From contig OZ241889.1 of NCBI GenBank assembly GCA_965203355.1, forward strand, positions 352,001 to 416,000: a stretch of DNA of 64,000 nt, read 5' to 3'. Under the pieces are notes generated by a model. It was not told the origin of the DNA and searched no databases. It saw nothing but the letters and a program-made list of their open reading frames with translations. A program made the translations under genes and the position numbers. Every line of letters starts with the position of its first letter. Position 1 is the stretch's first letter. Below, one piece after another: positions 1 through 16,104 of this stretch. The DNA is from Candidatus Latescibacterota bacterium. GTDB lineage: Bacteria > Latescibacterota > UBA2968 > UBA8231.

Positions 1-50
1 AGGCGGTCCTTGGGTCGCCTTGCTGACGCGGTACTAGCGGGCGAGCAACA

Positions 51-989
51 ATGGACCTCAGCGACCGCGTCTTCTTCGGCCAGACCGATCTTCAGGTCTC
101 GCGCCTGTGTCAAGGAACCGCCTTCCGCCACCTGCCCCGCGCCGACAGCCCCCAGTCCTTAGCCGTACTCCACCACTGCTTGGACCAAGGCGTCAACTTC
201 TTCGACACCGCGCAGGCCTACGGCTGGGGCGGGGCCGAGGAGGTGCTGGGGCGGGCGATCGCGGGTCGCCGCGACCAGGTCGTCATCTGCACCAAGGTTC
301 CCGCGTCGCTGGCCCCTACAAGCGACGGCGATCCCGGAGCGCGCGTCCGCTATACTCGCGCCCATCTCACCCACCGCCTCGAAGAAAGTCTCGGCCGCCT
401 GCGCACCGACCGCGTCGACCTCTACCTTTTACACCACCGCGACGAAAACACGCCGCTGGAGGCCATCGCCGAGGTCATGGAGGACTTGGTAAAGGCGGGC
501 AAAACTCGCTACTGGGGCGTCTCCAACCATGGCACCGCCGAGGTCGAAGCCTTTCTCGACCTCGCCCCCATGGCTGGAGTCGAGGACTACTACAATATCG
601 CCGGCAGCCACTGCGACGAAGCGGGACGCTCGCGGGTGGAAATCTACGAAGAAGAGATGCTGCCCCTGCTGCGGCGCACTAACCTAGGCTGCCTAGCCTT
701 CAGCCCGATGGACACCGGCCTGCTAGCTCGTCCCAACGATCCCGCCCTCGCCGCGTTAGTCGCCGCCCTCGACCAAGTCGCCGCTGACTTGGGCACCTCC
801 CGCGCCGCCGTCTGCGTCGCCTGGGTTCTGCATCAGGGCATTACCTGCGTACTCGCTGGCGCCGAAAGCACCGCGCATGTCAATGCCAATCTCCAAGGCA
901 CCGGCCTCCAACTTCCCGCGGACGCCCTCGCCGCCCTCGACCAAGCGCGTCGTACCTACCGCGCCAGCCAACAGGAGCAACGCCCGTGA
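51..989 (+). CDS. Aldo/keto reductase
   Basis: AKR motifs GVNFFDTAQAYG, VVICTK, SLGRLRTDRVDLYLLH, GKTRYWGVSN. Confidence 0.9.
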   Translation: MDLSDRVFFGQTDLQVSRLCQGTAFRHLPRADSPQSLAVLHHCLDQGVNFFDTAQAYGWGGAEEVLGRAIAGRRDQVVICTKVPASLAPTSDGDPGARVRYTRAHLTHRLEESLGRLRTDRVDLYLLHHRDENTPLEAIAEVMEDLVKAGKTRYWGVSNHGTAEVEAFLDLAPMAGVEDYYNIAGSHCDEAGRSRVEIYEEEMLPLLRRTNLGCLAFSPMDTGLLARPNDPALAALVAALDQVAADLGTSRAAVCVAWVLHQGITCVLAGAESTAHVNANLQGTGLQLPADALAALDQARRTYRASQQEQRP

Positions 990-1867
990 ACATCGTCGAT
1001 GCCCATGTCCACGTCTGGTCCTCCGACTTCAATCGGTATCCGCTGGCCCCCGGCTTTGCGCCCGGCGATCTGTGGCTACCCTCTTTTACGCCTGACGACC
1101 ACTTTGCCTACAGCCGCCGGGTCGGCAAGGTCCGCCTCAACCTAGTGCAAATGACCTGGTACGGCCTCGACCACCGCTACATCCTCGACCTCATCGCCTC
1201 TGACCCCGAGACCTACACAGGCACCGGCATCGTCCCCGGAGTCTCCGACGTATCGCTGGCCGATCCGGGCAAGACCATGCTCGCCTTGGCCGAGGGCGGC
1301 ATTCGCGCCTTCCGCGTACGCGGCGGCAAGACCGGGCGTCCGACCGCGTTTGGCCGCTCGGACCGCTGGCTCGACTATCCCGGCTACGAATCCATGTTCC
1401 GCGCCGGGGCCGAGCACAACCTAGCCCTCAGCTTCCTCATGGGACTTGCAGACCTGCCCGGCTTGGTCCGTCTCTGCCGCCGCTTTCCCGCAACCCCGGT
1501 GATCCTCGACCATGTCTGCGGAGTGCGCATCCGCGACGGCGTCTGGCCCGCAAGCGATATCCGCACCCTCTGCACCATGGCCCGCTACCCGCGCGTCATG
1601 GTCAAGCTCGGCCCGTTCCAAGCCCTCGGCAACGGCGAGGCCCCGCACCTCGACCTCTTGCCCCTCATCGAGCGCATCGTCGATGCCTTTGGCCCCGAAC
1701 GCATCATGTGGGAGAGCGACAGCGGTGGCCCCATCCGCATGAAAAATCCCGTCGATGACTTTGCCGCGGCAATCGCTCTAATCCGCGACCACGCTGATTT
1801 CCTCAGCCAGCGCGACAAGGAATACATCTTAGGCAAGACAGCCGAGGACTTCTTCTTTAACCGCTAG
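986..1867 (+). CDS. Amidohydrolase family protein (Amidohydro_2, lactonase-like)
   Basis: IVDAHVHVW metal-binding motif, ILDH, FGPERIMWESD; GTG start overlaps the upstream stop. Confidence 0.85.
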   Translation: MNIVDAHVHVWSSDFNRYPLAPGFAPGDLWLPSFTPDDHFAYSRRVGKVRLNLVQMTWYGLDHRYILDLIASDPETYTGTGIVPGVSDVSLADPGKTMLALAEGGIRAFRVRGGKTGRPTAFGRSDRWLDYPGYESMFRAGAEHNLALSFLMGLADLPGLVRLCRRFPATPVILDHVCGVRIRDGVWPASDIRTLCTMARYPRVMVKLGPFQALGNGEAPHLDLLPLIERIVDAFGPERIMWESDSGGPIRMKNPVDDFAAAIALIRDHADFLSQRDKEYILGKTAEDFFFNR

Positions 1868-1945
1868 CGATCAGCCGCGTTCCGCTTGATGCGCCCTCCC
1901 CCATTCCGTACACTCCCGCGCAACCTTCCCAAAGGAGTCTCCATC

Positions 1946-2752
1946 GTGAAAATCGGCCTCTACGCCTCCATGTTCGGCAAAGACGATCCACCCACGCTGC
2001 AAAGCATCGAAAGCTACATCGACCACGCCTACGACCTCCGTCTCGACTTAATCGACTTCCGCCGCGACCGCGGCTTTAGCTCCGAAAACGCCGACTACCT
2101 CATCAAGACCAAACTCTCCTGCATCGAAAAAGGACTTTCCATCGGCTACTTAGCTTCCGGTGGACACTTCGTCGGCAGCGACGAAGTGCTGCGTGCCAAG
2201 GTCGCCACTGCCAAGGCCGACATGGCCATCGCGCTGATGTTGGGCGCGCCCATGATCCGCCTGTTCTGCGGCCAGCCCCTCACCGACCCAACGGAGCGCG
2301 CCCGCGAAATCCTCTGTTTCCAAGAAGTCGCCGACTACGGCCTCGAAATAGGCATCGCCATCGGCCTGCAAAACCACCCCTCCACCGGCGACGATATCCG
2401 GCGCATCATCGAGGAGACCGCCCGCCCCAACTTTAGCTTCCTGCTCGACACCGGCCAGTGGTGCGGTTCGCCAGCCCGCAACCGAGGCATTCCCGACCCA
2501 GACCACGACATCTACGCCTACATGCGGCAGACCGCCCATCTGGCCACCCACGTCCGCGCCAAGTTCTACAAGATCGACAGCGGCAAGGAAGCGTGGATCG
2601 ACTACGAGCGCATCGTCCCGATCCTCGCCGAGGCCGGATACAACGGGCCGCTCTCCGTCGTCTTTGAGGGCCAAGACATCAACGATTGCAACGACAAGGA
2701 AGTCATCCGCTTGGCGGCTGCACAACTGCGGGATTTGGCCGCCCGGCTCTAA
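1946..2752 (+). CDS. Sugar phosphate isomerase/epimerase (xylose isomerase-like TIM barrel)
   Basis: GAPMIRLF, IGLQNH, LLDTG, IDYERI...GYNGPLSVVFEG; GTG at 1946 follows AAAGGAG. Confidence 0.8.
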   Translation: MKIGLYASMFGKDDPPTLQSIESYIDHAYDLRLDLIDFRRDRGFSSENADYLIKTKLSCIEKGLSIGYLASGGHFVGSDEVLRAKVATAKADMAIALMLGAPMIRLFCGQPLTDPTERAREILCFQEVADYGLEIGIAIGLQNHPSTGDDIRRIIEETARPNFSFLLDTGQWCGSPARNRGIPDPDHDIYAYMRQTAHLATHVRAKFYKIDSGKEAWIDYERIVPILAEAGYNGPLSVVFEGQDINDCNDKEVIRLAAAQLRDLAARL

Positions 2753-2763
2753 CGGGGATGGTT

Positions 2764-2898
2764 TCGGATCAGAAAGCGTCGTTCAGCGCGACGCTGGGCT
2801 TACCCGTCCGCACTCCCGCTTGCAGGAGCCGTCCCACTCCTTGCCTTAAGACCGGGAGCGGCCTACTCTTCTTGGGTATCGGCCAAAGGTCGACCCGA
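2764..2898 (-). ncRNA. Candidate structured non-coding RNA, family unknown
   Basis: Five stems (four nested plus a side hairpin) in an intergenic region; two A-C mismatches on + become G-U pairs on -. Confidence 0.4.
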
Positions 2899-3009
2899 TG
2901 TTTTCTTTGTTGGAACCGCCCCCGTTCTACTGCAAATCCGTCCAATAATTCTTCCTAAGCAGGGTACGCGGCCGCAACGCCCATCTTTCACGCGGAGAAA
3001 TCTCATGCA

Positions 3010-3290
3010 GATAGACGCCTTCTCAGGGAAAAGGCCACCCAAGAAGACGTACCGTGCAAACGGCTTCCGGCCTCATCTGCAAAGAACTGAAGGCTGGCCC
3101 CGGGGTCTCGCCCAAAACCACCGACCGGGTCAAAGTCCACTACCACGGCTCGCTGATTGACGGCACCGTCTTCGACAACTCGGTAGAGCACGGCGAGCCT
3201 AGCACCTTCACCCGCGACCAAGTGATCAAAGGCTGAACTGAGGAACTGCAAATGATGAAAGTGGGCGGCCAAAATGGAAACTACATGTTG
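3010..3290 (+). pseudogene. FKBP-type peptidyl-prolyl isomerase (FklB/FkpA-like) remnant
   Basis: QTASGL...DRVKVHYHGSLIDGTVFD...QVIKG, then TGA at 3234-3236 where the conserved Trp is expected, then TEELQMMKVGG and a frameshifted WKLHV. Confidence 0.8.
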
Positions 3291-3919
3291 CCCGACTGTT
3301 GGTGTCGTGTAGTTAGGGCTGAGGTCCGTTCCCAAACTTGTGCAGCTAATGGCACGAGATTGCTTCCAGGGGCATCAAGGGCAATTCCCTGCGACAGAGA
3401 CCGGATACTAAGATAGATTGTCTGGCGACCTCGATGGTATAGACGCTGAAACAACAATAAGCATAGTTTACACACTACATACAGCATTAGAATCGGAGCA
3501 CCTGTTGCGATGTGCCAGAATACCGATAGCATCATACGTTGATGAATATCCTTAACGAACCCCTTATATTCTTCGTTTTGCAAGGTCGCCAATTGCTCGT
3601 CCAAACCATCGGAAAAAGGTCGCTTTTCTCGCGGGTATTTCTTTAACCCCCAATAGGCTGCCAGCACTCCCCAAATACTCACCCGGTGCCCATGACGCAA
3701 TAATCCATTGAGAATTTGTCGCATCATCACATATGAGGGAGTATCTAAGGGAACGCCTATACTGTAGGTCTTTATGAAAAGCGAATCTCGCAACACAAAA
3801 AGCTTGTGGCGTAGTAGATCAATCCGAAATTTTCGGTATCCCCAAAAGTAGACTATCCATCCAATCAATACATAAATCACCAGCCTGATACCGGCGATCG
3901 CTTCCATTTCGGTTGTCAT
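3281..3919 (-). CDS. Hypothetical membrane protein
   Basis: 212-aa ORF with hydrophobic segments, lower GC than the flanks, 4-nt overlap with the upstream gene. Confidence 0.7.
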   Translation of the reverse strand: MTTEMEAIAGIRLVIYVLIGWIVYFWGYRKFRIDLLRHKLFVLRDSLFIKTYSIGVPLDTPSYVMMRQILNGLLRHGHRVSIWGVLAAYWGLKKYPREKRPFSDGLDEQLATLQNEEYKGFVKDIHQRMMLSVFWHIATGAPILMLYVVCKLCLLLFQRLYHRGRQTIYLSIRSLSQGIALDAPGSNLVPLAAQVWERTSALTTRHQQSGNM

Positions 3920-4332
3920 GGCTCGTCCTCCGGGTGTGTGTCGCCTGCTTCCGTCAGGTCACTAGATGTGCGGTTAGGATCTATGTGCTTTTCAAGTTTC
4001 TTTATATATGTTTCTATATCCTGTGTCTTCTTTTTTCGTAGTTTGCGCTCTCTTATGGCCCAAAAAGTTGTACCGCCTGTGATCAAGTATAAAACGCCCC
4101 TGTCAAGTTCCAAGTCGGTAATAGCTTTGAGAACAATATCTGCATCAGTAGTTTTGCCGGCTAGGCTATCTACTATCAAATATAAGAAATAGAAACATGC
4201 AACTATACCTCCCCACCGTATCAGTCCATTAAAAATCCCCCCAATAGTGTCCCACTTTTTTCCATACTTGGCCCATTCAAGTCGAGACCTTTCTGAAATA
4301 CCTTCACCTTTGCGCCGCCGTCCTTTCGCCAT
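3916..4332 (-). CDS. Hypothetical membrane protein (two TM segments, coiled-coil C-terminus)
   Basis: 138-aa ORF, AGGAG RBS upstream, C-terminal DPNRTSSDLTEAGDTHPED. Confidence 0.75.
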   Translation of the reverse strand: MAKGRRRKGEGISERSRLEWAKYGKKWDTIGGIFNGLIRWGGIVACFYFLYLIVDSLAGKTTDADIVLKAITDLELDRGVLYLITGGTTFWAIRERKLRKKKTQDIETYIKKLEKHIDPNRTSSDLTEAGDTHPEDEP

Positions 4333-4605
4333 ATCTGCTCCTAAATTAAATATACAATACAGACATGTTATTAATACGTAATATGTTGAACCCTATCAAC
4401 TCTAGGACGCTGCCTTGCAGGTACTCAAGCTCCCGACCAATCCCTCGTGGGCGTAGTGCCAAGCCTCCAAGTGACTGAGGGGGGCACTGCATTTCGGCCT
4501 GTTTGGCGGCAATTCCTCGTCGAGCTGCCCGGCTTGGTGCAGGAGACTTTTCCACCACAGACGCGGTAACTGGACCACGCCTAGCGGCCCTTGCCAGTGC
4601 TCCTT

Positions 4606-5460
4606 TCAGGTGGCTGCCAACTCAAACAGCGGTGCGTTCTCCTCGGCGCGAACTCGCAAGCCCTCCACTTCGGCGGCTGTGAGCGGCGCGAGGCGGTCGG
4701 CCATGTCCAAGGCCATTTCAAAGAGAGATGCCTCGCCGGGCGGCAGGGCGGCTGTGATGGGCTGCGATAGGGCGAAACGCAGAGCTAGCTCGGCTAGTGC
4801 CGGCTCGTCAATGGGATCGTACCAGCATTTGGCGTAGCGTTTGGGTGTTCCTTGGGGCAGGCGCGAGCGGGCCATGGCTTTGAGGGCTAGGCAGGCCGCA
4901 CCGCGCTCCTGTGCCTTGGCCACGACTTGGGGGCCGAAGCCGGCTTGGAAGTAATTGACCCAGTTGATGGGGAAGAGCACCGAGTCAAAGGGAAAATAGT
5001 CCAGCAGTTCCAGGGCGATTTCAGCCGAATGGGCTGAAAAACCTATGTAGCGCACCAAGCCTTGATCGCGGGCTTCCACAAACGCCGACAAGGCGCCGTC
5101 GGGGGCCGTGGCCGCGGCAAAATCCTCATCCGTGGTCATGGCGTGCAATTGGTACAAGTCGAAGTGATCGGTGCGCAGGGCCTTGAGCGATTGGCGCAAC
5201 TCAGCGGCGGCTCCAGCCCGGGTGCGCTAGGTGGTCTTGCAGGCCAAGAATACCTCGCTGCGATGCGGCTCCAAGGCTGGTCCCAGACGCTCTTCGGCGT
5301 TGCCGTAGCTCGGGGCCACGTCAAAGTAATTGACGCCGCGCTCAACGGCTCGTCCCACCAAGCGGTCGGCCTCAGCCGCTTCCACTTGGCTGACGACGAT
5401 GCCGCCGAAACCGATTACAGAAAGGTGTTCACCCGTGGTACCGTAGGGACGTCGCTGCAT
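4606..5460 (-). pseudogene. Aldo/keto reductase interrupted by one in-frame TAG
   Basis: ORFs 5227-5460 and 4606-5199 share a frame; reads FLACKTT*RTRAGAAAELRQSLKALRTDHFDLYQLH with TAG at 5227-5229. Confidence 0.8.
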
Positions 5461-5580
5461 GGATATTCTCCTATTTTTAGTGAGACAAATGCGTTGTTGT
5501 CGGCAACCTACTCAAACCCCGTTGCGCCGCCCTTGTTTTCTTCGGCGAACAGGGTTTCGTCGAGAAGGATGCGAATGGGC

Positions 5581-5823
5581 TTATTGTGGGGGACTCTGTT
5601 GAAAGCGAGTGCGAGCATTGGGAAGCGTAATGCCAACAAGACGGCTATCGCGATAATGGTAGATACTCCCGTCATCTTCCATCACACTGTCGTTGGCGCA
5701 CTGAGGCTTTGCAAAGCTGAGATACAATACATCAGCCCCTTCATCATAGTCACTCCAAACTTGTGAATAAGGCAAGCGCAATAGCTCGGAAACAAACGTC
5801 AGGTTAATGCTGGATGTATCCAT
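5581..5823 (-). CDS. DUF2283-like protein (putative antitoxin)
   Basis: YDEGADVLYLSF...D..LVGIT signature. Confidence 0.8.
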   Translation of the reverse strand: MDTSSINLTFVSELLRLPYSQVWSDYDEGADVLYLSFAKPQCANDSVMEDDGSIYHYRDSRLVGITLPNARTRFQQSPPQ

Positions 5824-6146
5824 ATCGCATTCCTCCTGCGAGTAATTTTATCCGGCCTCGACGTTAAAAATGCCGTAATGATGAACCCATCTTCTTCATC
5901 GCAATATATGGCGACACAGGTCTTTTCAGTAATGTTGGTCGCATCATAATATCGCAATGCAATTGTCGCCCCCAAATCTCCGGCGACCAAGCGATCCGGG
6001 GCTGCAACTGTTTCGAGCACCTTTTCCTGATTTCCGGCCATGTAATCGTGCGACTCTGTGATGTGAATCCATTGCTTATGGGTCAATCGTATAGTATGCC
6101 GATCAATAGAAGGTACGGTTGATAAGATAACATTTCCAGGTATCAT
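5799..6146 (-). CDS. DUF4258/BECR (RelE-like) RNase-fold putative toxin
   Basis: IRLTHKQWIHITESH...GFIITAF; overlaps the DUF2283 gene. Confidence 0.7.
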   Translation of the reverse strand: MIPGNVILSTVPSIDRHTIRLTHKQWIHITESHDYMAGNQEKVLETVAAPDRLVAGDLGATIALRYYDATNITEKTCVAIYCDEEDGFIITAFLTSRPDKITRRRNAIWIHPALT

Positions 6147-6402
6147 AGAATCAGGTCAGGCTTTTGGGGCAAATATACCGTTCACTCAAATAGGTACCCC
6201 AATTGATATTCTGGGTGTACTAGCACTGGACCAAGTCTCTTCTGGAATAAAGCGAGGCTACCTGTGTCGAAAGAGAATTGGAACTGTTGATGAAGATCTG
6301 GACCGACGTCCAATAGACACTCGAATATGACGCACTATGCAAGTAACGTCTACGTTCTATAACAGGTTGAAGACAACTCGAAAGCGATTTACCAGCCGGT
6401 AT

Positions 6403-6795
6403 TCATTCACTCATTAAAGCATCGAAGCGTTCGAGAAGTACTCCATAGTCCTTCACCCATGAGGAGATCAAATCGGTCGTCTTGGTTGGCAACGCCAGTT
6501 GTCTCGCAAGGTCGGCGAGATATTGCTGTTCTTCAGAGCTTGTATGCTGATCCGCTAGTGCCAAAACGAGAGCATCACGATAAACCAAGATCCGTGTGGC
6601 CCATGGCAGTTCCGACAAGTCGTCGGGACACTCCGGAAGGTTGTCAAGATCGATGCCAAAATGTGCGGCCTGTTGCTCAAGGATTTCCTGCTCGGCGGGG
6701 TGAAGTCCATCTGAATGAGCTATCTTTGAGAGGGTCGCGATGTACAACTCAGGCGAAAAACCATCGAGAGGATTCTGTAGAGAATTCATATTCAC
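6403..6795 (-). CDS. TerB-like protein
   Basis: Two TerB half-motifs: KIAHSDG-LHPAEQEIL and LALADQHTSSEEQQYLADLARQL. Confidence 0.75.
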   Translation of the reverse strand: MNMNSLQNPLDGFSPELYIATLSKIAHSDGLHPAEQEILEQQAAHFGIDLDNLPECPDDLSELPWATRILVYRDALVLALADQHTSSEEQQYLADLARQLALPTKTTDLISSWVKDYGVLLERFDALMSE

Positions 6796-8252
6796 TCCAT
6801 CATAAAGGCGTCGAGTTCGTCGGTTTTACGAATTATATGCCTGTCGGGTACGCCAACGATCTCCGCGAACTGGATGCTAGCTTCCAGCCTCAGATCGGTA
6901 TTTACAGTGTTATCGAAAGCGACCTTCGCTAGACGCTCCAAGCTTCCGAAGTAAGCATCCAACTTTTTGATAAAGGCACGGAATTCTTCATCAAGCTGTT
7001 CAATAGCTCTTTTCTCGTAGGTAGCAAGTCGTGCAATCAGCTTCGATTCTGCCATCCCAAGTCCGTTCTTGATAGCTGAAGCGACAATTTTCCCTGCAAG
7101 ACTGCCGACAAAAGCACCCAACATGGGGATTGGAATTAGTACTTGGCCGGCCATAGCGGCCAAGCCAACGATCGCGGCGTCCGCTGCGATGACGTGCGAC
7201 AACTCCACGAATTGCTCGCCATCAATCTTGCCAGAGTGGTACTGCCTCAGAAGATCCCCGACACCCATCAAGCTGCTGACAAGAGCACCGGCAAATGGAG
7301 CAGCCAGATCGGTCGAGTTAGTCAAGGCATACAATGCACTGCCAGCAACGGCCCCACCACCAGCACCTTTTGTTGCGGCAACACCAACGTCCTTCCAGTC
7401 CTGAGTTGAAAACTCTCCTTTGAAGGGGTTCTTGCCATCTCGATACTTGACCCATATCGCCTGTCCAAAACGGACTCCGCTACCGGCTGCAGCACCTATA
7501 GCTGCTGCACTTCCAAGCCCCGATAGTGATGGACCGTGTTCGGTTATCGCTTCCTGCTTCAGTTCATCATTCTTTTGAGCCAACCTATTTTCGCGATCAT
7601 CAAGCGTGTCATGGACACGCCCCTGTTGAACCTCAGCGTAAGTGCCTTCTCCCGGCTGAATGAGTTCGTCTAGGGACCTACCTGTCTTCTGTTGGAGGTC
7701 ATTAAGTTTACCCGAGATCGCGTTCGCGCTCTTTTCGGAAAGTCCATCAATCTGACCTGTCTGGCGCAACTGCTCTATTTGCTGATATTGATCGCGAGGA
7801 ATGTGGTAATGACCGCCGCCACTTGCAAAATCTTGATACTTCGTCTCATGGAGAGAAACTCCTTCCAAGGTATTACGAAGACCGTTATAATACTTGGACT
7901 GAATATCCACGCCCATCTCGCGATAATCGACAGGATCAAGGCGTCCGACTCCAGAAAATGTAGCCGTCGGCGTACGACCGTACAGTGCATCTATCGCACG
8001 GCGGACTCCCACATGAACCTGTTCTGCAATCTCGCCATGCTTGGTGGCCGGATTGCCAAGGATATTTTCTGGAGATCCCACAAAATCACGGACGCGCGAC
8101 ATCTCTCGCCACGCGTCCAAGAAATTCCTATCCTGAGTCTGTATTACTTCGGCGAGCCTGTTGGCTCGGTCCGCCGCATCAAGGGATGCCCATGTAGCTG
8201 CGACCTGCGCGGCTACATGCGGTCCCGTATGGTTTGTGTCAGGCTGATTCAA
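6792..8252 (-). CDS. Hypothetical protein: possible REase-fold N-terminus plus Gly/Ala-rich hydrophobic helices
   Basis: 486-aa ORF; HGEIAE...PVD...DIQSK; hydrophobic GSAAAIGAAAGSG and VLIPIPMLGAFVGSLAG; 4-nt overlaps on both sides. Confidence 0.7.
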   Translation of the reverse strand: MNQPDTNHTGPHVAAQVAATWASLDAADRANRLAEVIQTQDRNFLDAWREMSRVRDFVGSPENILGNPATKHGEIAEQVHVGVRRAIDALYGRTPTATFSGVGRLDPVDYREMGVDIQSKYYNGLRNTLEGVSLHETKYQDFASGGGHYHIPRDQYQQIEQLRQTGQIDGLSEKSANAISGKLNDLQQKTGRSLDELIQPGEGTYAEVQQGRVHDTLDDRENRLAQKNDELKQEAITEHGPSLSGLGSAAAIGAAAGSGVRFGQAIWVKYRDGKNPFKGEFSTQDWKDVGVAATKGAGGGAVAGSALYALTNSTDLAAPFAGALVSSLMGVGDLLRQYHSGKIDGEQFVELSHVIAADAAIVGLAAMAGQVLIPIPMLGAFVGSLAGKIVASAIKNGLGMAESKLIARLATYEKRAIEQLDEEFRAFIKKLDAYFGSLERLAKVAFDNTVNTDLRLEASIQFAEIVGVPDRHIIRKTDELDAFMME

Positions 8253-9100
8253 AGTGCGACCTCAGCTTGGAGTAGTTGGCTAAGCGAGCGAATGTGATTA
8301 ATGAGAGCCGCAAGTCTTTCTTTTTGTTCTAAGTTGAACTGCCGATAGTTTTTCGGAGCATGGTTTGTAAGCCAATCGAGGCCAGCCAAGCACCCCTCTG
8401 AGTGCTCTTTTGTACGTTGTCCAAGCCCCTTAATCTCTCGATTAGCCGTCTCTAGGGAGCGAACTTTTGCTTCGACCTTGACACGCTCCTGTGATGCCTT
8501 CTCGGCGATCTCCTTGTTGCGCTTGTTAAGGTAGATTGCTGATCCTCCAATAGCGAGACCACCAATTGTCCATCCTACAGGACCTGTAAGGACCAGAAGA
8601 ACTTTTCCAGCAGCCATGCCACCACCTCCGGCAGCAACAGCTCCACCTCCGAGCCAAGCGAGAGCAGCATTCGTGGCTGCAGCACCGGATAGAGCGGATA
8701 TCGCTGTTCCAGTTGATGCTGTACCAAAGGTAGTCGCCACCGCCATAGCCGCGGTTGGACCTAGCGCAGCAACTCCTACACCCACGGCCCCTCCAGTTGC
8801 GCCCGTAGCCTTACCTATCTTAGTGGACTCTGTGGCTTCCGTCTTGAGACGTTGCACGGTCCTATCGAAGCGATTCGCTTCAACGCGGTACTGGGCAACC
8901 GACTTGTCGAACTCCTTGGGCGAGTTCGCAAGCAGGTTCACGTAATCTTCGACTCGTTCGATCACCTCACCAGCCGTCCGTTGCCGTTGCTTGAATAGCC
9001 GTACGCTCGCACGCTCGACACTCTTGCGAATAGACTCATATCTGTTGACTACCTTATCAAGCTTCTCAATTTCCTCGCGGCGCACAGACGAATTGAACAT
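8249..9100 (-). CDS. Hypothetical protein: coiled coil - Gly/Ala hydrophobic hairpin - coiled coil
   Basis: ATG at 9100 after an AAAGGAGA RBS; GTASTGTAISALSGAAATNAALAWLGGG segment. Confidence 0.75.
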   Translation of the reverse strand: MFNSSVRREEIEKLDKVVNRYESIRKSVERASVRLFKQRQRTAGEVIERVEDYVNLLANSPKEFDKSVAQYRVEANRFDRTVQRLKTEATESTKIGKATGATGGAVGVGVAALGPTAAMAVATTFGTASTGTAISALSGAAATNAALAWLGGGAVAAGGGGMAAGKVLLVLTGPVGWTIGGLAIGGSAIYLNKRNKEIAEKASQERVKVEAKVRSLETANREIKGLGQRTKEHSEGCLAGLDWLTNHAPKNYRQFNLEQKERLAALINHIRSLSQLLQAEVAL

Positions 9101-9167
9101 TCTCAATCTCCTTTGATTCGGAATCTTACTAAAACCTCGCCCCGCCGTCAAACGATTCCAACGCGCA

Positions 9168-9851
9168 CTAAAAATGAAGCGTGAGTCTCGTCCCCACATT
9201 CTTGGGAGAAACGACCGGATCGACACCAAGCGTAGTTCGGCTGCCGCCAAGCTCAATCAGATGTCCGTAAGAAGAGTGTTGATTTTGCCGATTGATTGTG
9301 TCAGCAGATTTTCCTGCATCGTACATGGCACCTAGCCAACTACCGAAAAAAATAATAAGCCCGGGACCAATTTTCCAATCGTCATCATCAGGATCAACTT
9401 TGGTTTCGGTTATATAACCGAAGTTGTTTGTGTATTCATAATAATTATCCTCAAAACCACTTCTCGCCAGTGCAATACCCAAGATAATTGCGCCGAACAG
9501 AGTCACGCCTTTACGGTACTGCCCATTGTAGAATTGTCCGCTTCCTGGAAGGAAAAGCGACAGACCCATAGCGATATTAGGGTCTTTCTTTTGAACCCCA
9601 ATCTCCCCTCGTCTCCCCATCACAGGTTCCCGGGACATCTTAGCAATCTCGTCCATCGCATAGACGAACACATTCCCATCGCGCGTCTGTATCTTCAGCG
9701 ATTCGCCGACAATCTCCTCAATGATAACTCCGCGAATAAGTCCACCGTTTTTCAAGTGAATGACATCTTCCATTTGCTGCATTTGCTGGGCGAACGCGGG
9801 CGAGGTCATAACAAAAACCGTCAGGCATGTGAAACAAATAAAACGCGGCAT
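9168..9851 (-). CDS. Exported hypothetical protein with a TM2/DUF5683-like motif
   Basis: Signal peptide (AFA-QQ), DVIHLKNGGLIRGVII domain, KKDPNIAMGLSLFLPGSGQFYNGQ. Confidence 0.75.
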   Translation of the reverse strand: MPRFICFTCLTVFVMTSPAFAQQMQQMEDVIHLKNGGLIRGVIIEEIVGESLKIQTRDGNVFVYAMDEIAKMSREPVMGRRGEIGVQKKDPNIAMGLSLFLPGSGQFYNGQYRKGVTLFGAIILGIALARSGFEDNYYEYTNNFGYITETKVDPDDDDWKIGPGLIIFFGSWLGAMYDAGKSADTINRQNQHSSYGHLIELGGSRTTLGVDPVVSPKNVGTRLTLHF

Positions 9852-9891
9852 GTTTTCTCCTATTTGGTCGCGGCAACGTTTTTCGCCAAGA
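9829..9891. repeat. 63-bp direct repeat, copy 1 (5' UTR, RBS and first codons of the 9851 gene)
   Basis: Matches 10442-10504 at 60/63 positions by eye. Confidence 0.9.
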
Positions 9892-9952
9892 ATCCTCTAC
9901 CGTGCCGGTCAGTATCTTCTGCTAGTCGGTACCCGTTGCGCGGACTTTCTAC

Positions 9953-10144
9953 CTATAAATACTGATCGGCAAAGGATCGAGGCGTGAGCACTTTGAGCCG
10001 CTTATAGCCGGGGTACTCAGTGAGAATTTCGGGCGTCACGACGATTTGGACACTGCCGCGCCTCCAAGCATTGAGGATCTGATGCGGTGGACCAGTAAAG
10101 AATACGCCTGATATAAAGACATTCGTGTCCACGACGATCTTCAT
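9953..10144 (-). pseudogene. PIN-domain toxin with an internal in-frame deletion
   Basis: N-terminal MKIVVDTNVFISG...EILTEY joined directly to C-terminal VLTPRSF; central acidic motifs absent; 63 aa. Confidence 0.75.
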
Positions 10145-10404
10145 TTTGCCGCTCGGACCCGGGAAACAGCGGCGGTAACATCTGATCGTTTCATTCCAGC
10201 TTGCTTAGCTTGGCGACGTGCTTTGGCAATCATGCGGTCGAAATCGCGCATGGAGGGAGTCTGGATGGTCTTGAGAATGATGACATCGTCTTCGCCCATG
10301 ACAATGAACCGGGTACCCGACTCCAATCCGAGCTGTTGGCGCAGGGACTCGGGAATGACGACTTGCCCTTTGGAGGACATGCGGGTAGTGGCGACTGATT
10401 CCAT
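10141..10404 (-). CDS. AbrB/MazE/SpoVT family antitoxin
   Basis: TTRMSSKGQVVIPESLRQQLGL; AGGAGG RBS; overlaps the PIN gene start. Confidence 0.9.
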   Translation of the reverse strand: MESVATTRMSSKGQVVIPESLRQQLGLESGTRFIVMGEDDVIILKTIQTPSMRDFDRMIAKARRQAKQAGMKRSDVTAAVSRVRAAK

Positions 10405-10441
10405 AAAGCCTCCTTTTATAATAAACTGGTAAAAAATAAAG

Positions 10442-10504
10442 GTGAAACCAATAAAACGCGGCATGTTTTCTCTTATTTGGTCGCGGCAAAGTTTTTCGCC
10501 AAGA
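10442..10504. repeat. 63-bp direct repeat, copy 2
   Basis: Matches 9829-9891. Confidence 0.9.
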
Positions 10505-10646
10505 TTGGATTATGCGGTTTGTCGGAGACAATACATATTGCACGACAGGCCCTTTGTCAACGAAACGGGCGGCACTTGGTTGACCCAACGCTAACTATGA
10601 CGCTCATTACGGGGCAGACGCACACAGCCTACTAAAGGAGCGATCC

Positions 10647-12404
10647 ATGAGCCATCTAAATCCTCGCGCCATCGCCATTCACACTCCGATGCCACCGCCC
10701 GTTTGGGCACTGATGGAGTGGGAACTGATTCGAGCGCAAACGAGGGGATGCACGGAATTTTTCGCCAAGTACTTCGACGAGCGGGGCTATTTGGAGTGCA
10801 TCCCGCGCTGGGGCGGCAACGACGGGCCGGACGACGCTATCGAGAATCTAGTCCACTGGCCGGTGCTCTATGTGCTGGGTGGTGGCCCCCATCTGTACGA
10901 TATGTGCCAGTTGGCTTGGGAGGGGCATCTCAAGCAGTACACCGAGGCTAAGACCACGGAAGTGCCCTTTGCTCGGGACGGTATGTACTATCGCGAATTT
11001 CCAGTGATGTTCGACTGGGTGCATAACGGAGAAGGGCTGACGACGTTCAACCTGCACGGATTGATGAATCCACGCGAGCGAGCCTTTGAGCAGCGGGTGC
11101 GGCGCTACGCCGGATTTTACATGGGCGACGACCCACAAGCGCCCAACTACGATCCCGCACGCAAAATCATCAAGAGCCTGTTCAACGGCAGCCGCGGGCC
11201 CCTGCTGCGCCAGGCCACAGCACTCGACTGGGCCGGCGATCCACTCGACGAGGTGCAGGAACGCTTCATTCCCCTGCACGGAGAGCGCAACTTCGAGGAG
11301 ATGCTGGCTCATTTCAAAGACTACACCGACATCGTCGGCGACCATCCCCAAAACATGGTGGCGACGGCCTTGGGGCTGAACGCGTACGCGCTGACGGGCG
11401 AAGACCAGTACAAGAACTGGGTGCTCGAATACGTCGAAGCCTGGCGGCAGCGCACCCTCGCCAACGACGGGATCATCCCGACCAATATCGGACTCGATGG
11501 GACCATCGGCGGCGAGTGCGACGGCAAGTGGTACGGGGGGTGTTACGGCTGGGCCTTTACCGTCGAAGTGCCCCAGACCGGAGCAAGGGCCAGCCGCAAC
11601 ACGCACGGGCTGGGGATTTCGGGTTTTGGCAACGCGCTGTTGCTGTCGGGCGAGCAGAAATTCGTCGATGTGTGGCGGCAGATGATCGACACAATCAACG
11701 CCAACGGCAAAGAAGTCAACGGGCAAATGATGTACCCGCATATGCACGGAGACGCCGGCTGGTACGAGTTCCGGCCAGCAAAGTACGCGCACGGAGCACA
11801 AGAGGTGTACTACTGGTCGATGGACCGGGCCGACCTGAATCGGCTGAACGCCGACAGCGGCTGGTTCGGCTTTTTGGATGGACGCGACTCCACCTACCCA
11901 GAAGCGGCACTACAGGCCGACTTTGCCCGCCTCCGCACGCAAATGGAAAAGGTGCGCCGCGACCCGACAACGCCGGACACCCGGCTGTCGGACAATCCCA
12001 ATCCATTCAACCCGGCCATTCCGGGCGGACTGACTCAACTCATGTTAGGCGGGCTGACGCCGCGCCACGGCTCGCCGCTGCACTGCCGAGTGCGCTACTT
12101 CGATCCACAGGCTGGGCGCGCCGGGATGCCCGAGGGCGTGGGGGCGTTGGTGGAGCGACTAGGCGCGGACTTCATGACCCTAACGCTGGTAAATACAGAC
12201 CCAGTGGCCGGGCGCGAAGTAATCGCACAAGGCGGAGCCTATGCCGAGCACCAGTTTACGAGTGTGCGCGTGGGGGGAAAGGAAACCGCGATAGATGATT
12301 CGGCTTTTGCCGTGGAGCTAGCGCCGGGAGCCGGGGCGACGTTGGAGATCGGAATGCAGCGCTATGCCAATAGGCCGACGTTTGCGTTCCCGTGGGATCG
12401 GTAA
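10647..12404 (+). CDS. Hypothetical protein, Trp/Tyr/Asp-rich, possible alpha/alpha-toroid enzyme
   Basis: 585-aa ORF with AAAGGAG RBS; no family confidently recognised. Confidence 0.75.
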   Translation: MSHLNPRAIAIHTPMPPPVWALMEWELIRAQTRGCTEFFAKYFDERGYLECIPRWGGNDGPDDAIENLVHWPVLYVLGGGPHLYDMCQLAWEGHLKQYTEAKTTEVPFARDGMYYREFPVMFDWVHNGEGLTTFNLHGLMNPRERAFEQRVRRYAGFYMGDDPQAPNYDPARKIIKSLFNGSRGPLLRQATALDWAGDPLDEVQERFIPLHGERNFEEMLAHFKDYTDIVGDHPQNMVATALGLNAYALTGEDQYKNWVLEYVEAWRQRTLANDGIIPTNIGLDGTIGGECDGKWYGGCYGWAFTVEVPQTGARASRNTHGLGISGFGNALLLSGEQKFVDVWRQMIDTINANGKEVNGQMMYPHMHGDAGWYEFRPAKYAHGAQEVYYWSMDRADLNRLNADSGWFGFLDGRDSTYPEAALQADFARLRTQMEKVRRDPTTPDTRLSDNPNPFNPAIPGGLTQLMLGGLTPRHGSPLHCRVRYFDPQAGRAGMPEGVGALVERLGADFMTLTLVNTDPVAGREVIAQGGAYAEHQFTSVRVGGKETAIDDSAFAVELAPGAGATLEIGMQRYANRPTFAFPWDR

Positions 12405-12514
12405 CAGCCTCGGGAGCGATTCTCTCAACAGGAAAGGCCAGCGAAAATGGGGGTGTTTCGCGCACGAGCACTCGACGACAATCCCTATCAGGGCGCAGGT
12501 CGGCTACGACCGTT

Positions 12515-14242
12515 CTATCGTGCGCGTTCGACCTGCACCCCAATGATGTCTAGGTCGTGGTATTTCTGGTGCCGCACCGCAGAGGCGTAGTGCCGCAACA
12601 GACGAAACGAGACCTCGCTTTCGTCTATTATCTCGGGCTGTTCGCTCAGATACGCCAGGCGGTCTTCGAGATTTTCCCCGGCGGCAGTCGCCAAAAACTC
12701 CAGTTCCACCGTTCCTTCGGCGGGCCGGGCGGTGAGGATCAAATGCCGCCTGTCGCTTGCATCGTCTTCTGCTTGTTGCGTCAGAATCGCCAAAGTCTCT
12801 TCCCCGGCGGCGCGGAGCCGCTTAGTCGCCGGACCGTCCCAGCCGACGCGCACGGCAAATTCGCCGAGGAACTCGTCGATCTTGGGCAGCGAGGCCGCGG
12901 CTAACTCGACCTCCAGACGTCGGCGGCGCGGAGCCGTCAGCTCCATGAATGCAGTCAGCACAATCGCCGTAAGACAACCAGCGGTCATGCCGTTGCCGAG
13001 CAAGGTGCCCCACGTCCCGCCCAGCATATCGGCGAAGATCACCTGATTCTGAAAGCCTACGCCAAGCCAAAACGACAGCCCCACCACCGCGGCCTTGCGG
13101 TGATCGAGGCCACTCTCGACGACCAACTTCATGCCCTGAACGAAAAGCAGACCGATTAGCAAGGTTACATAGGCCGCCCCCACGGGATTGGGAATGGCGA
13201 TCAGGAGAGCCGTCACCTTGGGCGATAAGGACAGCACCGCAAAGATGCCCCCCACATACACCCCAACGCGCCGTGCGGCAACGCCGGTGAGTTCAGCGAG
13301 CGATATACTGGTTGAGTAGGTCGTATTGGGGGGCGTCCCAATCAAACCCGACAACAGGTTGCCCATTCCATCGGCATTGAGAGCGCCTTGGACCAGGCGA
13401 AAATCAGTTGCTCGGGGCTGACGCCGCGAGACCCGTTGGATGGCAACGCCGTCGCCAATGGTTTCAATCGCGCCCACCAGAGTAACGAGCACAAACGCCG
13501 GCAGCAAGGCCCAGAATTCTGCACTGAACGTCAGGTCCAATCCCGGCCACGTGCCGTCGGGAAAACCGATCCAAGGGGCTGCGATTACGGGCTGCATGTC
13601 GTACAGTCCGAAGAGAGCAGCCACCACACAGCCCACCACGATGCCGATGAGTGGTGCCCACAGTCGCCAAGTCACGGGAGCGCGCAAAGCCAACACCACG
13701 AGGACCACGAGCGTCGCCCCAGCCGCAGTCGGGGCCGCCGCAGGCGGCGTGCCGTCGGGCACATCCGTGAGCAAGCCGAAAACGATGGGCATGACCGTGA
13801 CGGCGATCAACATAATCACCGTGCCGGCGACAGTCGGTGTGAGAATCCGGCGCAACAGCGAAAGCCGCGCAGCTAAGGCAAATTGGAACAGCGACGCAAC
13901 GACGATCAAGCTCGCCATCAGAGAGGGACCGCCCTTCACCAGTGCCGTGATGCAGACCGCAATGAAGGCACCGGAGGTGCCCATGATGAGCACGTGCCCG
14001 GCCCCGATTCGCCCGACCCGGACCGCTTGCAGAATCGTGCTCACGCCACTGATTAGCAGCGCCGCGAAGGCAATCCAATTTAGATAGCTCTCCGGCTGGT
14101 TGGCCGCCCGGCCAATAATAATCGCGCTGAGCACCACCGGCGCGATGATGACCACCGCAGCCTGAAAGCCGACTCCAGCGGCGACAGAATGGGGGGGGCG
14201 CTCGTCCGGCTCGTAGCGGACGTTTTCATTTGCTTGTGCCAT
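12515..14242 (-). CDS. NCS2 (xanthine/uracil permease) family transporter with a C-terminal cytoplasmic extension
   Basis: GFQ in TM1, LVGAIETIGD, GALNADG, PNTTYSTS NAT-like signature; ~135-aa soluble tail. Confidence 0.85.
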   Translation of the reverse strand: MAQANENVRYEPDERPPHSVAAGVGFQAAVVIIAPVVLSAIIIGRAANQPESYLNWIAFAALLISGVSTILQAVRVGRIGAGHVLIMGTSGAFIAVCITALVKGGPSLMASLIVVASLFQFALAARLSLLRRILTPTVAGTVIMLIAVTVMPIVFGLLTDVPDGTPPAAAPTAAGATLVVLVVLALRAPVTWRLWAPLIGIVVGCVVAALFGLYDMQPVIAAPWIGFPDGTWPGLDLTFSAEFWALLPAFVLVTLVGAIETIGDGVAIQRVSRRQPRATDFRLVQGALNADGMGNLLSGLIGTPPNTTYSTSISLAELTGVAARRVGVYVGGIFAVLSLSPKVTALLIAIPNPVGAAYVTLLIGLLFVQGMKLVVESGLDHRKAAVVGLSFWLGVGFQNQVIFADMLGGTWGTLLGNGMTAGCLTAIVLTAFMELTAPRRRRLEVELAAASLPKIDEFLGEFAVRVGWDGPATKRLRAAGEETLAILTQQAEDDASDRRHLILTARPAEGTVELEFLATAAGENLEDRLAYLSEQPEIIDESEVSFRLLRHYASAVRHQKYHDLDIIGVQVERAR

Positions 14243-14324
14243 GACTCACTCTTTCAATCAGGTTGCACTACAAAATCCGCGAAATCTACATCGTTGCTTG
14301 GGGAAATATGCGACGATTGGCCAA

Positions 14325-14504
14325 CTAGTGCAAAAATCGACGCGACGCGCTTTCTGAAACGTCGTCGCCCGACAGCCAGCGCTTTTCTAGCTTGAGTTCT
14401 GCCAAATAATCCAGAATCATGCCGCCGAGGCTAGGGTTTTGCTCCACTAGCTCCGTAAGCTCTTCCGGGGTCACATCCCATCTGTCGAGAATCGTTTCGG
14501 GCAT
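14325..14504 (-). pseudogene. Fragment resembling the N-terminus of a restriction endonuclease
   Basis: ILDRWDVTPEELTELVEQNPSLGGMILDYLAELKL followed by an early stop; family recalled from memory only. Confidence 0.4.
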
Positions 14505-14604
14505 ATTATCGCCTCTCAAGCCTTCTATATAATGAATTTGCGGGCCTCAATGGCTCGGCCCTGTAGGTCGGCCAGTGCTGGGTCAAAGCGGTGTTTTTTC
14601 TCGC

Positions 14605-15939
14605 TCAATATCCCAATTCCCGCTCCATTTCTCCAACCACATCCGCGATCACCTGTGCGACTTCCTCGACTTGCTCTTCGCTGATGGTAAAGGGCGGGCT
14701 GATGGCAATGTGATCGCCGCTGACGCCGTCGATCAAGCCGGGCGATCCGGGCATGATGAGCACACCTTTGGCAAAGGCGCGGTTGACGATCGCGGCCGCC
14801 ACGCCCTGCGTGGGATCAAAGGGCGTACCGGTCGCCTTGTCCTTGACAAACTCGACGCCGGTAAGCAGGCCCTTGCCGCGCACCGCGCTGACTAGGGGCG
14901 AGTCCATTAAGGGCTGCATCTTCTCCAGCATCAGGTCGCCCATCTGCGCACAGCGAGAAACCAAATCGTGGTCTTGGATGTAGTTCTGCACGGCCAAGGC
15001 AATGGCGCAAGAGAGTGGATTGCCGCCGTACGTGTGGCCGTGAACGTAGTGGTTTTGCTTTTTGTAGATCCCGTCGTAGATCGCGTCGCGGACCAAGGTG
15101 GCAGCAATAGGCGTGTACCCACTGCTGAGGCCCTTGCCAGTAGCCATGATGTCTGGGATGGCGTCCCAGTGCTCAATCCCGAAGTTGAGTCCCGTGCGTC
15201 CGTAGCCCGTGACCACTTCGTCGATGATCATCAAGACGCTGTAGCGGTCGCAGATCGCGCGGATGGTGGGGAAGTAGTCGGGCGGTGGCATCAGGCCGCA
15301 GCAAGAAGTGCCCGAGATCGGCTCGGCAATAAAGGCGGAGATGTACTCGCTGCCCTCTTGTTTGATGACCCGTTCCAGATCTTCGGCGCAGGCCAGCGTA
15401 CAGGCGGGCCGGTCTTGGCAGTACGGGCAGTTCGCCGGGCGGGGAAAGGCGATGTGCGGGAAGTCGAGCAAATAAGGCACGTAGTCCTCGCGCCAAGTGG
15501 AGCGACCCGACATGGAAAGCGCGCCAATGGTATTGCCGTGCCAGCTCTGCCAGCGGGTGATGACTTTGTACTTCTTCGGGTTGCCGGTCTCGACGTGGTA
15601 CTTGCGGGCGATCTTGAGCGCGGACTCCGTGGCTTCGGACCCGCCGGAGACGAAGAAGACGCGGTTGAGGTCGCCCGGGGCTAGGGCGGCGATTTTGTCG
15701 GCGAGGTCGATTTGCGGCTGGGTGAGGAAGCGGGCATAGGTAAAGCAAACCTTGTTCGACTGCTCCCGCATGACGTCAGCTATCTCTGGGACGCCGTGGC
15801 CGATGGAAATCACGTGGACGCCAGCGCAGGCATCGAGGTATGCCCGGCCATCTTCGGCGTAAAGGTAGCAGTCTTTGCCGTGGGAAATCTGCGGCCAGTG
15901 GTCGGTAATGACGCGGTGGAAAATGCGGTCCGTGGTCAT
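14605..15939 (-). CDS. Class III PLP-dependent aminotransferase
   Basis: YLDACAG, SGGSEATE, SWHGNT, FIAEP, IIDEVVTGYGRTG, DIMATGKGLSSGY, HGHTYGGNP. Confidence 0.93.
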   Translation of the reverse strand: MTTDRIFHRVITDHWPQISHGKDCYLYAEDGRAYLDACAGVHVISIGHGVPEIADVMREQSNKVCFTYARFLTQPQIDLADKIAALAPGDLNRVFFVSGGSEATESALKIARKYHVETGNPKKYKVITRWQSWHGNTIGALSMSGRSTWREDYVPYLLDFPHIAFPRPANCPYCQDRPACTLACAEDLERVIKQEGSEYISAFIAEPISGTSCCGLMPPPDYFPTIRAICDRYSVLMIIDEVVTGYGRTGLNFGIEHWDAIPDIMATGKGLSSGYTPIAATLVRDAIYDGIYKKQNHYVHGHTYGGNPLSCAIALAVQNYIQDHDLVSRCAQMGDLMLEKMQPLMDSPLVSAVRGKGLLTGVEFVKDKATGTPFDPTQGVAAAIVNRAFAKGVLIMPGSPGLIDGVSGDHIAISPPFTISEEQVEEVAQVIADVVGEMERELGY

Positions 15940-16104
15940 GGATTTGGTCCTTTGGCGGTGGTGGGGACAAGGGCCTGAAGATACGCAGGCCCAAGCGGCC
16001 AGCATAGGGCGCGCCCGGTTTTAGCGGCTGTTCGAGGTGCAACCCGCTCAATATCTCGATATGTTTCCCTTTACCGCTGCAAACGTCAGTGAGATAACAA
16101 ACAG

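Follow-up and report, generated by a model that had tools for sequence, protein, structure and literature searches.

A TerB-bearing form of the PDC-M09 gene pair in a Latescibacterota genome: a candidate membrane-directed defence operon

TerB proteins were first described in tellurite and stress cassettes (10.1101/2022.05.11.491447) and are present in the validated systems Bunzi and Shango (10.1101/2022.05.11.491447) and Dionysus (10.1101/2025.09.30.679545). In the parts of these two reports that were available, they are proposed to represent amphitropic membrane-surveillance modules, which switch between cytoplasm and membrane. For Dionysus, the available part of the report states that all three genes are needed, that a complex is predicted between its two membrane proteins, and that jumbo phages are blocked at the early vesicle stage with neither host lysis nor permeabilisation of the host membrane (10.1101/2025.09.30.679545). 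The PDC collection, on the other hand, comprises 145 untested candidates obtained from genes that lie within BREX, DISARM, type I restriction-modification (RM) and Hma loci, and the accessible part of that preprint lists PDC-M09 among the 'guilt-by-embedding' candidates (bioRxiv 10.1101/2024.01.29.577857). Here we analysed a stretch of 64,000 nucleotides (nt) from Candidatus Latescibacterota bacterium (contig OZ241889.1, positions 352,001 to 416,000; in the following called the window), in which three genes, A, B and C, combine a PDC-M09 pair with a TerB gene. We lean towards the view that this operon encodes a membrane-embedded machine of the PDC-M09 family with a TerB accessory, which is directed against phages or other mobile elements and acts at the membrane.

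The genes, their junctions and signals, and the regions of the encoded proteins are as follows.

8249-9100, minus strand: gene A, 283 amino acids (aa), from the open reading frame (ORF) list and homologue starts; PDC-M09A family
6792-8252, minus strand: gene B, 486 aa, from the ORF list; PDC-M09B family
6403-6795, minus strand: gene C, 130 aa, from the ORF list; predicted acidic stand-alone TerB-family protein
8249-8252, minus strand: TTGA, 4-nt overlap of the gene A stop and the gene B TTG start, read from the sequence
6792-6795, minus strand: GTGA, 4-nt overlap of the gene B stop and the gene C GTG start, read from the sequence
9108-9114, minus strand: AAAGGAG ribosome-binding site, 7 nt 5' of the gene A ATG, read from the sequence
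9123-9151, minus strand: promoter-like TTGACG, 17-nt spacer and TAAGAT, 5' of gene A, consensus match only
8531-8818, minus strand: gene A residues 95-190, Gly/Ala/Thr-rich hydrophobic core, best-conserved part by conservation and hydropathy
7623-8075, minus strand: gene B residues 60-210, YeeR_C-type domain with PD-(D/E)xK-like core and invariant H72, G73, E77, D109, Q118, K120 and H135
7062-7526, minus strand: gene B residues 243-397, membrane part with four Gly/Ala-rich helices of membrane type and one amphipathic helix, with invariant P374, P376 and G379
6795-7055, minus strand: gene B residues 400-486, C-terminal helical domain with model helices 401-418, 422-445, 448-465 and 477-485

The three genes form a real and intact operon on the minus strand within an island of low guanine-plus-cytosine (GC) content. 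Both 4-nt overlaps that the original prediction had reported (8249-8252 and 6792-6795) can be seen in the sequence, and its statement that the genes are lower in GC than the core agrees with values of 0.47-0.55 over 5500-10000 vs 0.60-0.66 on both flanks. The longest ORF form of gene A has a TTG start (8249-9256). The alignment of gene A homologues shows that they open with M-F/L-N, and the ATG at 9098-9100 has the ribosome-binding site 7 nt upstream of it, therefore gene A is placed at 8249-9100 and its predicted length of 283 aa could be kept. The candidate promoter is weak, because two promoter-like sites were found in the region compared to 2.9 expected from shuffles.

Gene A matched the PADLOC model PDC-M09A at 2.7e-112 (residues 1-281 on profile positions 1-280 of 282) and a second PDC-M09A model at 4.7e-87, while gene B matched PDC-M09B at 8e-161 (residues 12-485 on profile positions 8-479 of 480) and further models at 1e-92 and 2.6e-90. 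By the catalogue's own criterion, that is both models matched over their full length by adjacent genes on one strand, the profile matches identify the A-B pair as PDC-M09. The initial suggestion of a possibly undescribed system is thereby superseded, since the pair was already catalogued (bioRxiv 10.1101/2024.01.29.577857, as far as accessible). The matched models are named A and B only; the TerB gene C, translationally coupled to gene B, represents an addition, which was found in 42 of the 80 loci described below.

The association of the three genes was analysed in a locus scan with gene B as query (18-row alignment) and one genome per species, in which 234 relatives were found and the best 80 loci were kept. 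Gene A adjoins gene B on the same strand in 78/80 loci; one of the exceptions begins at gene B and the other lacks gene A. Moreover, gene C is located directly 3' of gene B (-4 to +74 nt) in 42/80 loci; in 40 of these 42 the coverage is 100 aa or more, and two of the apparent absences (L005, L062) concern contigs that break off at or shortly past gene B. Hence, the association is beyond chance, with A-B in 78/80 loci from many phyla and A-B-C in 42/80. Natural A-B fusion proteins also exist (P0244 with 876 aa and P0333 with 758 aa), which would imply a 1:1 contact of A and B. No other neighbour was common to more than eight loci, the most widely shared clusters of this kind being antisense ORF shadows of A and C. 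In a quick maximum-likelihood tree of 74 gene B sequences, for which 7 of 81 sequences with fewer than 400 aligned residues were omitted, two deep clades are separated by a split with 100% support in the Shimodaira-Hasegawa-like approximate likelihood ratio test. Gene C is confined to one of them: it occurs in none of the 24 rows of clade 1 and in 40 of the 50 rows of clade 2, to which the window belongs, and its presence on the tree demands at least five state changes. The A-B-C form was found in Gemmatimonadota, Latescibacterota, Acidobacteriota, Chloroflexota, Pseudomonadota and some Cyanobacteriota. The window groups with records from Gemmatimonadota and Latescibacterota at 87-89% identity, and three of these close records (L001, L002, L009) also carry the downstream pair of a 115-aa gene and a DUF2283 gene. 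The identity of 87-89% across the two phyla and the common 115-aa/DUF2283 pair therefore indicate that the block moved between phyla. In a Paracoccaceae record (L026), a second, larger TerB-domain protein of 274 aa (1.5e-6) is encoded at 8422-9246 on the minus strand, two genes 3' of A-B-C.

Furthermore, distant cassettes with a permuted gene order were observed, in which TerB comes first and is followed by an A-like (350-503 aa) and then a B-like gene (476-541 aa).

L102, 5294-8689: TerB (131 aa), A' (503 aa), B' (479 aa)
L098, 4943-8017: TerB (205 aa), A' (368 aa), B' (541 aa)
L101, 5769-7662: TerB (157 aa), A' (374 aa)
L099, 4503-6942: distant relative with B'

The B' protein of L102 retains the E...D...QxK pattern and aligns to gene B with an hhalign probability of 99 (E 2.8e-18), while B' of L099 shares the membrane part alone with gene B (probability 94.5). 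One genome (G002) harbours the canonical cassette plus two permuted TerB-first cassettes. Judged from these arrangements, TerB appears to have been joined to an A-B-type pair more than once.

Among the validated systems, Bunzi and Shango share a TerB-domain protein and the proposed membrane surveillance with the operon described here (10.1101/2022.05.11.491447, available part). However, the idea of a Bunzi-like variant, as put forward in the original prediction, was not supported, because no Bunzi or Shango model of PADLOC-DB matched A, B or C at E <= 0.1. The TerB protein of Bunzi is described, in the portion of the source at hand, with transmembrane helices and a lipid-binding domain, whereas gene C encodes a small, acidic protein without clear hydrophobic helix. 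Shango combines TerB with ATPase and helicase genes (SngA, SngB, SngC), whereas no ATPase or helicase domain was detected in A, B or C with Pfam. The Shango model SngC matched a helicase-type protein among the neighbouring loci in the PADLOC neighbour scan described below.

By composition, the closest validated look-alike appears to be Dionysus (DinA, DinB, DinC) from Pseudomonas aeruginosa, which comprises a TerB-like protein, an alpha-pore-former with four transmembrane helices and a larger transmembrane protein, and which could be compared by its description only (10.1101/2025.09.30.679545, in part). Common to both are the three-gene make-up and the stand-alone TerB protein. The gene B model contains four Gly-rich helices, and the likeness of gene A to ClyA-type toxins is not significant. 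However, the TerB gene is the second one in Dionysus but the last one here, and the available part of the report calls DinA MAEBL-like, names its H326 as important, mentions no nuclease-like domain and gives Gamma- and Betaproteobacteria as the only sources (10.1101/2025.09.30.679545). None of the profile libraries searched here returned a MAEBL model. Searching 301 genomes of one order and 400 genomes of one class with the gene A profile matched 9 and 5 genomes, respectively, and none of these loci was identifiable as Dionysus.

For gene B, 621 representative relatives were found at E <= 0.001, 81 of which were aligned (26-83% identity), and G66, H72, G73, E77, D109, Q118, K120, H135, P374, P376 and G379 are invariant in all 81 sequences. 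In the AlphaFold model (mean predicted local distance difference test score, pLDDT, of 87.9; predicted template modelling score, pTM, of 0.74) a long N-terminal helix (12-58) is followed by an alpha/beta domain at about 60-210 and then by a connecting helix. The core of this domain comprises helix 72-90 with E77, strand 110-112 with D109, strand 115-119 with Q118 and K120, helix 125-138 and strand 148-151, and the invariant site is placed on a helix-strand-strand-strand-helix-strand core with pLDDT values of 95-98. QxK is an accepted variant of the PD-(D/E)xK site. In the predicted structure, E77, D109 and Q118-x-K120 are located exactly at the PD-(D/E)xK catalytic positions and the topology of the model agrees with that fold. 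The E...D...QxK motif that had been noticed earlier (HGEIAE...PVD...IQSK) is present, its residues are invariant in the 81 homologues, and it lies on a predicted alpha-beta-beta-beta-alpha-beta core.

The same domain could be connected to a named family. A precomputed PF27347 (YeeR_C) annotation exists for 3 of 120 listed gene B homologues and for the nearest clusters in the ESM Atlas (score 0.93); an ESM Atlas search that excluded PF27347 gave no usable match, and a literature search for PF27347 returned no paper naming it. By these matches the domain probably belongs to a known but uncharacterised family. In this regard, residues 53-161 of gene B align to residues 391-496 of YeeR from E. coli K-12 (hhalign probability 75.7, E 2.4e-5), an inner membrane protein of the CP4-44 prophage, and both share the HG..E, D, Q.K and P.DQY positions. 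However, the remainder of YeeR is unrelated to gene B and no gene A-like region was found in it. The Gly-rich hydrophobic helices expected after the motif were located at 243-397 by model and hydropathy, with Gly/Ala-rich helices at 243-372 and an amphipathic helix at 378-397. In one relative of gene B, P0344 (1410 aa), about 1000 residues consist of near-identical repeats, whose units contain 'PGDGLAHN' and 'ADKNMDHLIAQMD', and which sit between the N-terminal enzyme-like piece and the membrane part.

Gene A belongs to a family that is far larger than that of gene B, since 7787 of 8000 scored candidates were found at E <= 0.001. In its model, helices 4-56, 62-99, 187-247 and 257-278 surround a hydrophobic centre (about 95-190) that is rich in Gly/Ala, consistent with the initial description of a helical protein with a long Gly/Ala hydrophobic stretch; the mean pLDDT is 59.9 and the four long helices are clear. 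The core reaches Kyte-Doolittle maxima of 1.64-1.72. At residues 121-180 the mean frequency of the top residue is 0.84-0.92 vs 0.47-0.69 in the flanking helices, a conservation beyond the needs of a plain membrane anchor. With Pfam, NCBIfam and PHROGs no family passed the cut-off for gene A or gene B, and profile searches of the operon proteins against PDB sequences gave nothing below E 0.001, the best matches being helical or membrane-insertion parts of unrelated proteins (E 0.002-0.2). Like gene A, the alpha-pore-forming toxins ClyA, Hbl, Nhe and MakA have a long helical bundle with a mid-chain hydrophobic segment, but the matches to them are weak: the low-confidence model of gene A was matched by Foldseek to the ClyA pore at E 0.19 (probability 0.84, template modelling (TM) score 0.38) and to ClyA-family structures at E 0.19-0.54 (TM 0.38-0.40), and the profile search against PDB sequences reached E 0.08 for MakA and E 0.08-0.5 for alpha-pore-forming toxins of the ClyA family. 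Among the best 50 VIA-align rows for gene A, ClyA did not occur and generic four-helix bundles rank first. A common origin of gene A and the C-terminal half of gene B was also considered and rejected (hhalign probability 1%).

Gene C matched Pfam TerB (PF05099) with 24.5 bits, just above the cut-off of 24.4 (E 3.4e-5), and of its 25 homologues 18 match TerB (best E 2.9e-7) and 19 DUF533. Hence, the stand-alone TerB assignment made earlier holds, and the protein is best regarded, on these profile matches, as a divergent member of the TerB family. Its paired D-G...E repeats are invariant (D29, G30, E35; D82...E89), it is acidic (22 D+E vs 7 K+R), and a strong hydrophobic segment is lacking, with a single window at Kyte-Doolittle 1.16. 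The best solved relative in the profile search against PDB sequences is the TerB-like protein 2ou3 (E 0.21). With PADLOC, no PDC-M09 model matched gene C; PDC-S48 alone gave a weak match (5e-4). A Barstar-like immunity protein was rejected as alternative identity, because Barstar (3.1e-4) stayed below the cut-off and was matched by 3/25 homologues vs 18/25 for TerB.

The genomic context of the cassette was then compared between the two clades. Three genes on each side were collected at 25 of the 80 loci, and the resulting 145 proteins were searched with PADLOC at E <= 1e-5. In the clade without gene C, all 13 sampled loci have at least one PADLOC match among the neighbours, a count that comes without random-locus baseline. 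These matches include a type IIG RM protein (3.8e-269), DpdF (1e-254), MkoA-like, ZorA and LeoA/LeoBC-like proteins, and furthermore PDC-M27B/C, PDC-S70, PDC-S03, PDC-S04/SoFic and WYL regulators. In L055, L057 and L060 (Enterobacter, Yersinia and Serratia) a 302-aa WYL-domain regulator (4250-5158) is encoded 4 nt 5' of gene A, and PDC-M27B/C genes adjoin in L055 and L057. L055 also encodes an 839-aa protein 3' of gene B (7498-10017), with a weak PDC-M09B match over the enzyme-like part. Mobile elements carry gene B homologues as well, namely 61 PLSDB plasmids (46 from Klebsiella, 5 from Lactococcus, 4 from Leptolyngbya), of which 30 are conjugative, and one phage-labelled contig. In E. coli the A-B pair is present in 8 of 5426 genomes, and the ET729 copy lies within an island with integrase, CbtA-YeeU and insertion sequence (IS) elements.

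In the reading that we slightly favour, A and B would assemble in the cytoplasmic membrane via their glycine-rich helices, and the enzyme-like domain of gene B would face the cytoplasm, because no signal peptide is present and the number of membrane helices is even. On infection the complex may act at the membrane and either open it or cleave nucleic acid there, or do both, with cleavage relying on the E77/D109/Q118/K120 site. Gene C might report the membrane or ion state, or restrain the complex until it is triggered. The original prediction had inferred a membrane-acting abortive-infection or toxin system. The candidate membrane module is retained, but abortive infection is just one of several options: since Dionysus targets the early vesicle of jumbo phages and leaves the host alive, a non-suicidal mode is as likely as abortive infection, and by analogy a membrane-directed, possibly non-suicidal mode is plausible. 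Likewise, the earlier proposal of a defence module stands insofar as PDC-M09 is a defence candidate that contains membrane proteins, whereas its A-B pair was already catalogued.

Several observations weigh against this reading. In the window's own clade, PADLOC matches were found among the neighbours at 3 of 12 sampled loci (LmuB-like, PDC-S11 and a helix-turn-helix control protein), and among the neighbours at 10 examined loci, transposases or integrases occur at 5 and metabolic genes make up the rest. All neighbour counts represent single hidden Markov model matches rather than complete systems and lack a random-locus baseline. The literature search over main texts found no experiment on PDC-M09, and a S. 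thermophilus preprint, as far as available, lists PDC-M09 outside defined defence islands. Structurally, Foldseek against PDB returned nothing at E <= 0.001 for gene A or gene B, the gene A model is poor at the key segment (pLDDT < 50 for residues 92-192), and the hydrophobic helices are just moderately so (Kyte-Doolittle maxima 1.0-1.9), hence membrane insertion is a prediction.

Among the alternatives, a pore-only effector survives best, although we consider it rather unlikely. Here, A and B would form a membrane pore or channel and depolarise the cell in the course of abortive infection, the YeeR_C domain would be a non-catalytic sensor or ligand-binding part and C a gatekeeper. It could explain why Gln (Q118) occupies the second acidic position in the motif of 81/81 gene B sequences, and it would fit with the glycine-rich core of gene A as the best-conserved feature of the system and with the weak likeness of gene A to the pore-formers ClyA (Foldseek probability 0.84, TM 0.38, E 0.19) and MakA (E 0.08). 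The B' protein of L099, which keeps the membrane part alone (probability 94.5), makes the N-terminal domain look exchangeable. However, H72, E77, D109 and K120 do not vary even at 26% identity and are seen again in YeeR and in a permuted cassette, as would be expected of an active site. Moreover, Dionysus did not permeabilise the host membrane, as reported in the available part of the source (10.1101/2025.09.30.679545), and ClyA is outside the best 50 VIA-align rows for gene A.

A non-immune role, either as addiction-type stabilising or competition module of mobile elements or as Ter-type membrane-stress module, seems unlikely to us. The transposase- and integrase-containing or otherwise metabolic neighbourhoods of the window's clade (5/10 loci), the small toxin-antitoxin (TA)-type pairs and decayed genes in the window's island, the 87-90% identity of the cassette between Gemmatimonadota and Latescibacterota records, the 61 plasmids with gene B homologues (30 conjugative) and the first description of TerB in tellurite/stress cassettes (10.1101/2022.05.11.491447, in its available part) would be in line with such a role. 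It fits less well that 13/13 sampled loci of the clade without C adjoin restriction, Dpd, Mokosh, Zorya, dynamin or candidate defence genes, that WYL regulators are encoded directly 5' in three enterobacterial loci sampled, and that PDC-M09 was chosen for copies embedded within known defence systems (10.1101/2024.01.29.577857, accessible part).

The relation to dynamin-like systems deserves mention, because gene A matched the PADLOC model LeoBC at 6.8e-8 (residues 21-279 on profile positions 366-566 of 601). It thus resembles the C-terminal stalk/paddle part of LeoBC from Eleos (LeoA, LeoBC), and both are membrane-directed, but Eleos needs GTP-binding motifs in both proteins according to the available part of the report (10.1101/2022.05.11.491447) and no GTPase match was obtained in A, B or C. 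From the same source, consulted in part, a dynamin-like system is known to act on jumbo phages as well (10.1101/2022.05.11.491447). Genes of this kind are located near A-B pairs in three unrelated places. On the Lactococcus lactis plasmid pSD96_06 (L105, 2585-10241) a dynamin-family gene is found on each side of A-B, together with a DUF262 gene, a LeoBC-like gene of 728 aa is situated directly 5' of gene A in L072 (1677-3863), and a LeoA-like gene near the A-B pair in L050 (383-2026). Dynamin-like matches occur in 2/25 sampled loci plus pSD96_06, and 5/81 gene B homologues weakly match DUF3482 (best E 2.9e-4). That A and B, lacking a GTPase, are partners of a dynamin paddle/stalk or descend from it, and serve membrane repair or remodelling together with a dynamin encoded elsewhere, would agree with these matches and neighbours but is very unlikely, since the window's cassette and most loci lack a dynamin or GTPase gene, and hhalign of gene A with the dynamin-like proteins beside A-B pairs aligned just 33 hydrophobic residues (probability 25) or nothing, so that the LeoBC match may reflect composition rather than ancestry.

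Returning to the membrane-embedded defence machine, the A-B pair itself was already catalogued, whereas its TerB-bearing three-gene form and the spread of this form, the link between gene B and yeeR, the A-B fusions and the permuted TerB cassettes are new. PDC-M09 thereby gains an anatomy that can be tested, with a candidate catalytic site common with yeeR, an obligate partner A and A-B fusions as evidence for physical coupling. TerB is recurrently joined to the pair, namely 3' of B in one large clade that covers at least six phyla and 5' of A' in the permuted cassettes, which links this untested candidate with a small group of membrane-directed defences that contain TerB, comprising Bunzi, Shango and Dionysus. 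If the enzyme domain of gene B were active, it would represent a rare example of a membrane-integrated effector of the nuclease type. Should the cassette fail to protect, PDC-M09 would have been wrongly called by 'guilt-by-embedding', which would be useful to know, too.

A wider view, in which we have little confidence, is that PDC-M09, the permuted TerB-A'-B' cassettes and possibly Dionysus belong to one widespread superfamily of membrane-embedded immune machines. Within this superfamily, it is conceivable though doubtful that a YeeR_C PD-(D/E)xK-type domain is held at the inner membrane face by a Tim17-like four-helix domain, next to a glycine-zipper partner. Just as tentatively, the enzyme might attack phage nucleic acid that crosses or is enclosed by a membrane, at the entry site or in the early vesicle of jumbo phages, with TerB as sensor of the membrane state. 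If true, this would also account for what the orphan E. coli island gene yeeR does.

The operon is embedded in an island with signs of gene decay. On its 3' side, a DUF2283 gene (5581-5823) and its 115-aa partner are found, the latter having no Pfam match. On the 5' side, an intact MazE/AbrB-type antitoxin gene (10141-10464) lies beside a PIN gene shortened to 63 aa (9953-10144), and a DUF5683 lipoprotein gene (9168-9851) separates this pair from gene A. The two TA-type pairs between which the operon had been placed are thus roughly present, but the 115-aa partner lacks a Pfam match, the PIN gene is truncated and the DUF5683 gene intervenes. The remaining decayed genes of the island are a 60-aa FKBP fragment and an aldo/keto reductase broken into pieces of 77 aa and 197 aa. 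A tRNA scan of positions 1-20000 found none and hence no tRNA integration site.

3054-3236: FKBP remnant
4606-5460: aldo/keto reductase remnants
9953-10144: PIN remnant

Two further coupled genes of the island, located on the minus strand at 3916-4332 (138 aa) and 3281-3919 (212 aa), overlap by 4 nt and have its lowest GC (0.45). Both match PHROGs of unknown function (phrog_27816, 3.3e-11, and phrog_13156, 1.4e-14), and the 212-aa protein additionally gave a weak match to the PADLOC model 1TM-TIR (0.006). These genes may represent a second small membrane module of phage origin. On the plus strand, a 585-aa ORF with native GC at 10647-12404 matches no Pfam family at E <= 0.001. Finally, tandem genes for large leucine-rich-repeat proteins of 795 and 787 aa are located at 23508-28287 (plus strand), following a TonB-dependent receptor/SusD-like pair.

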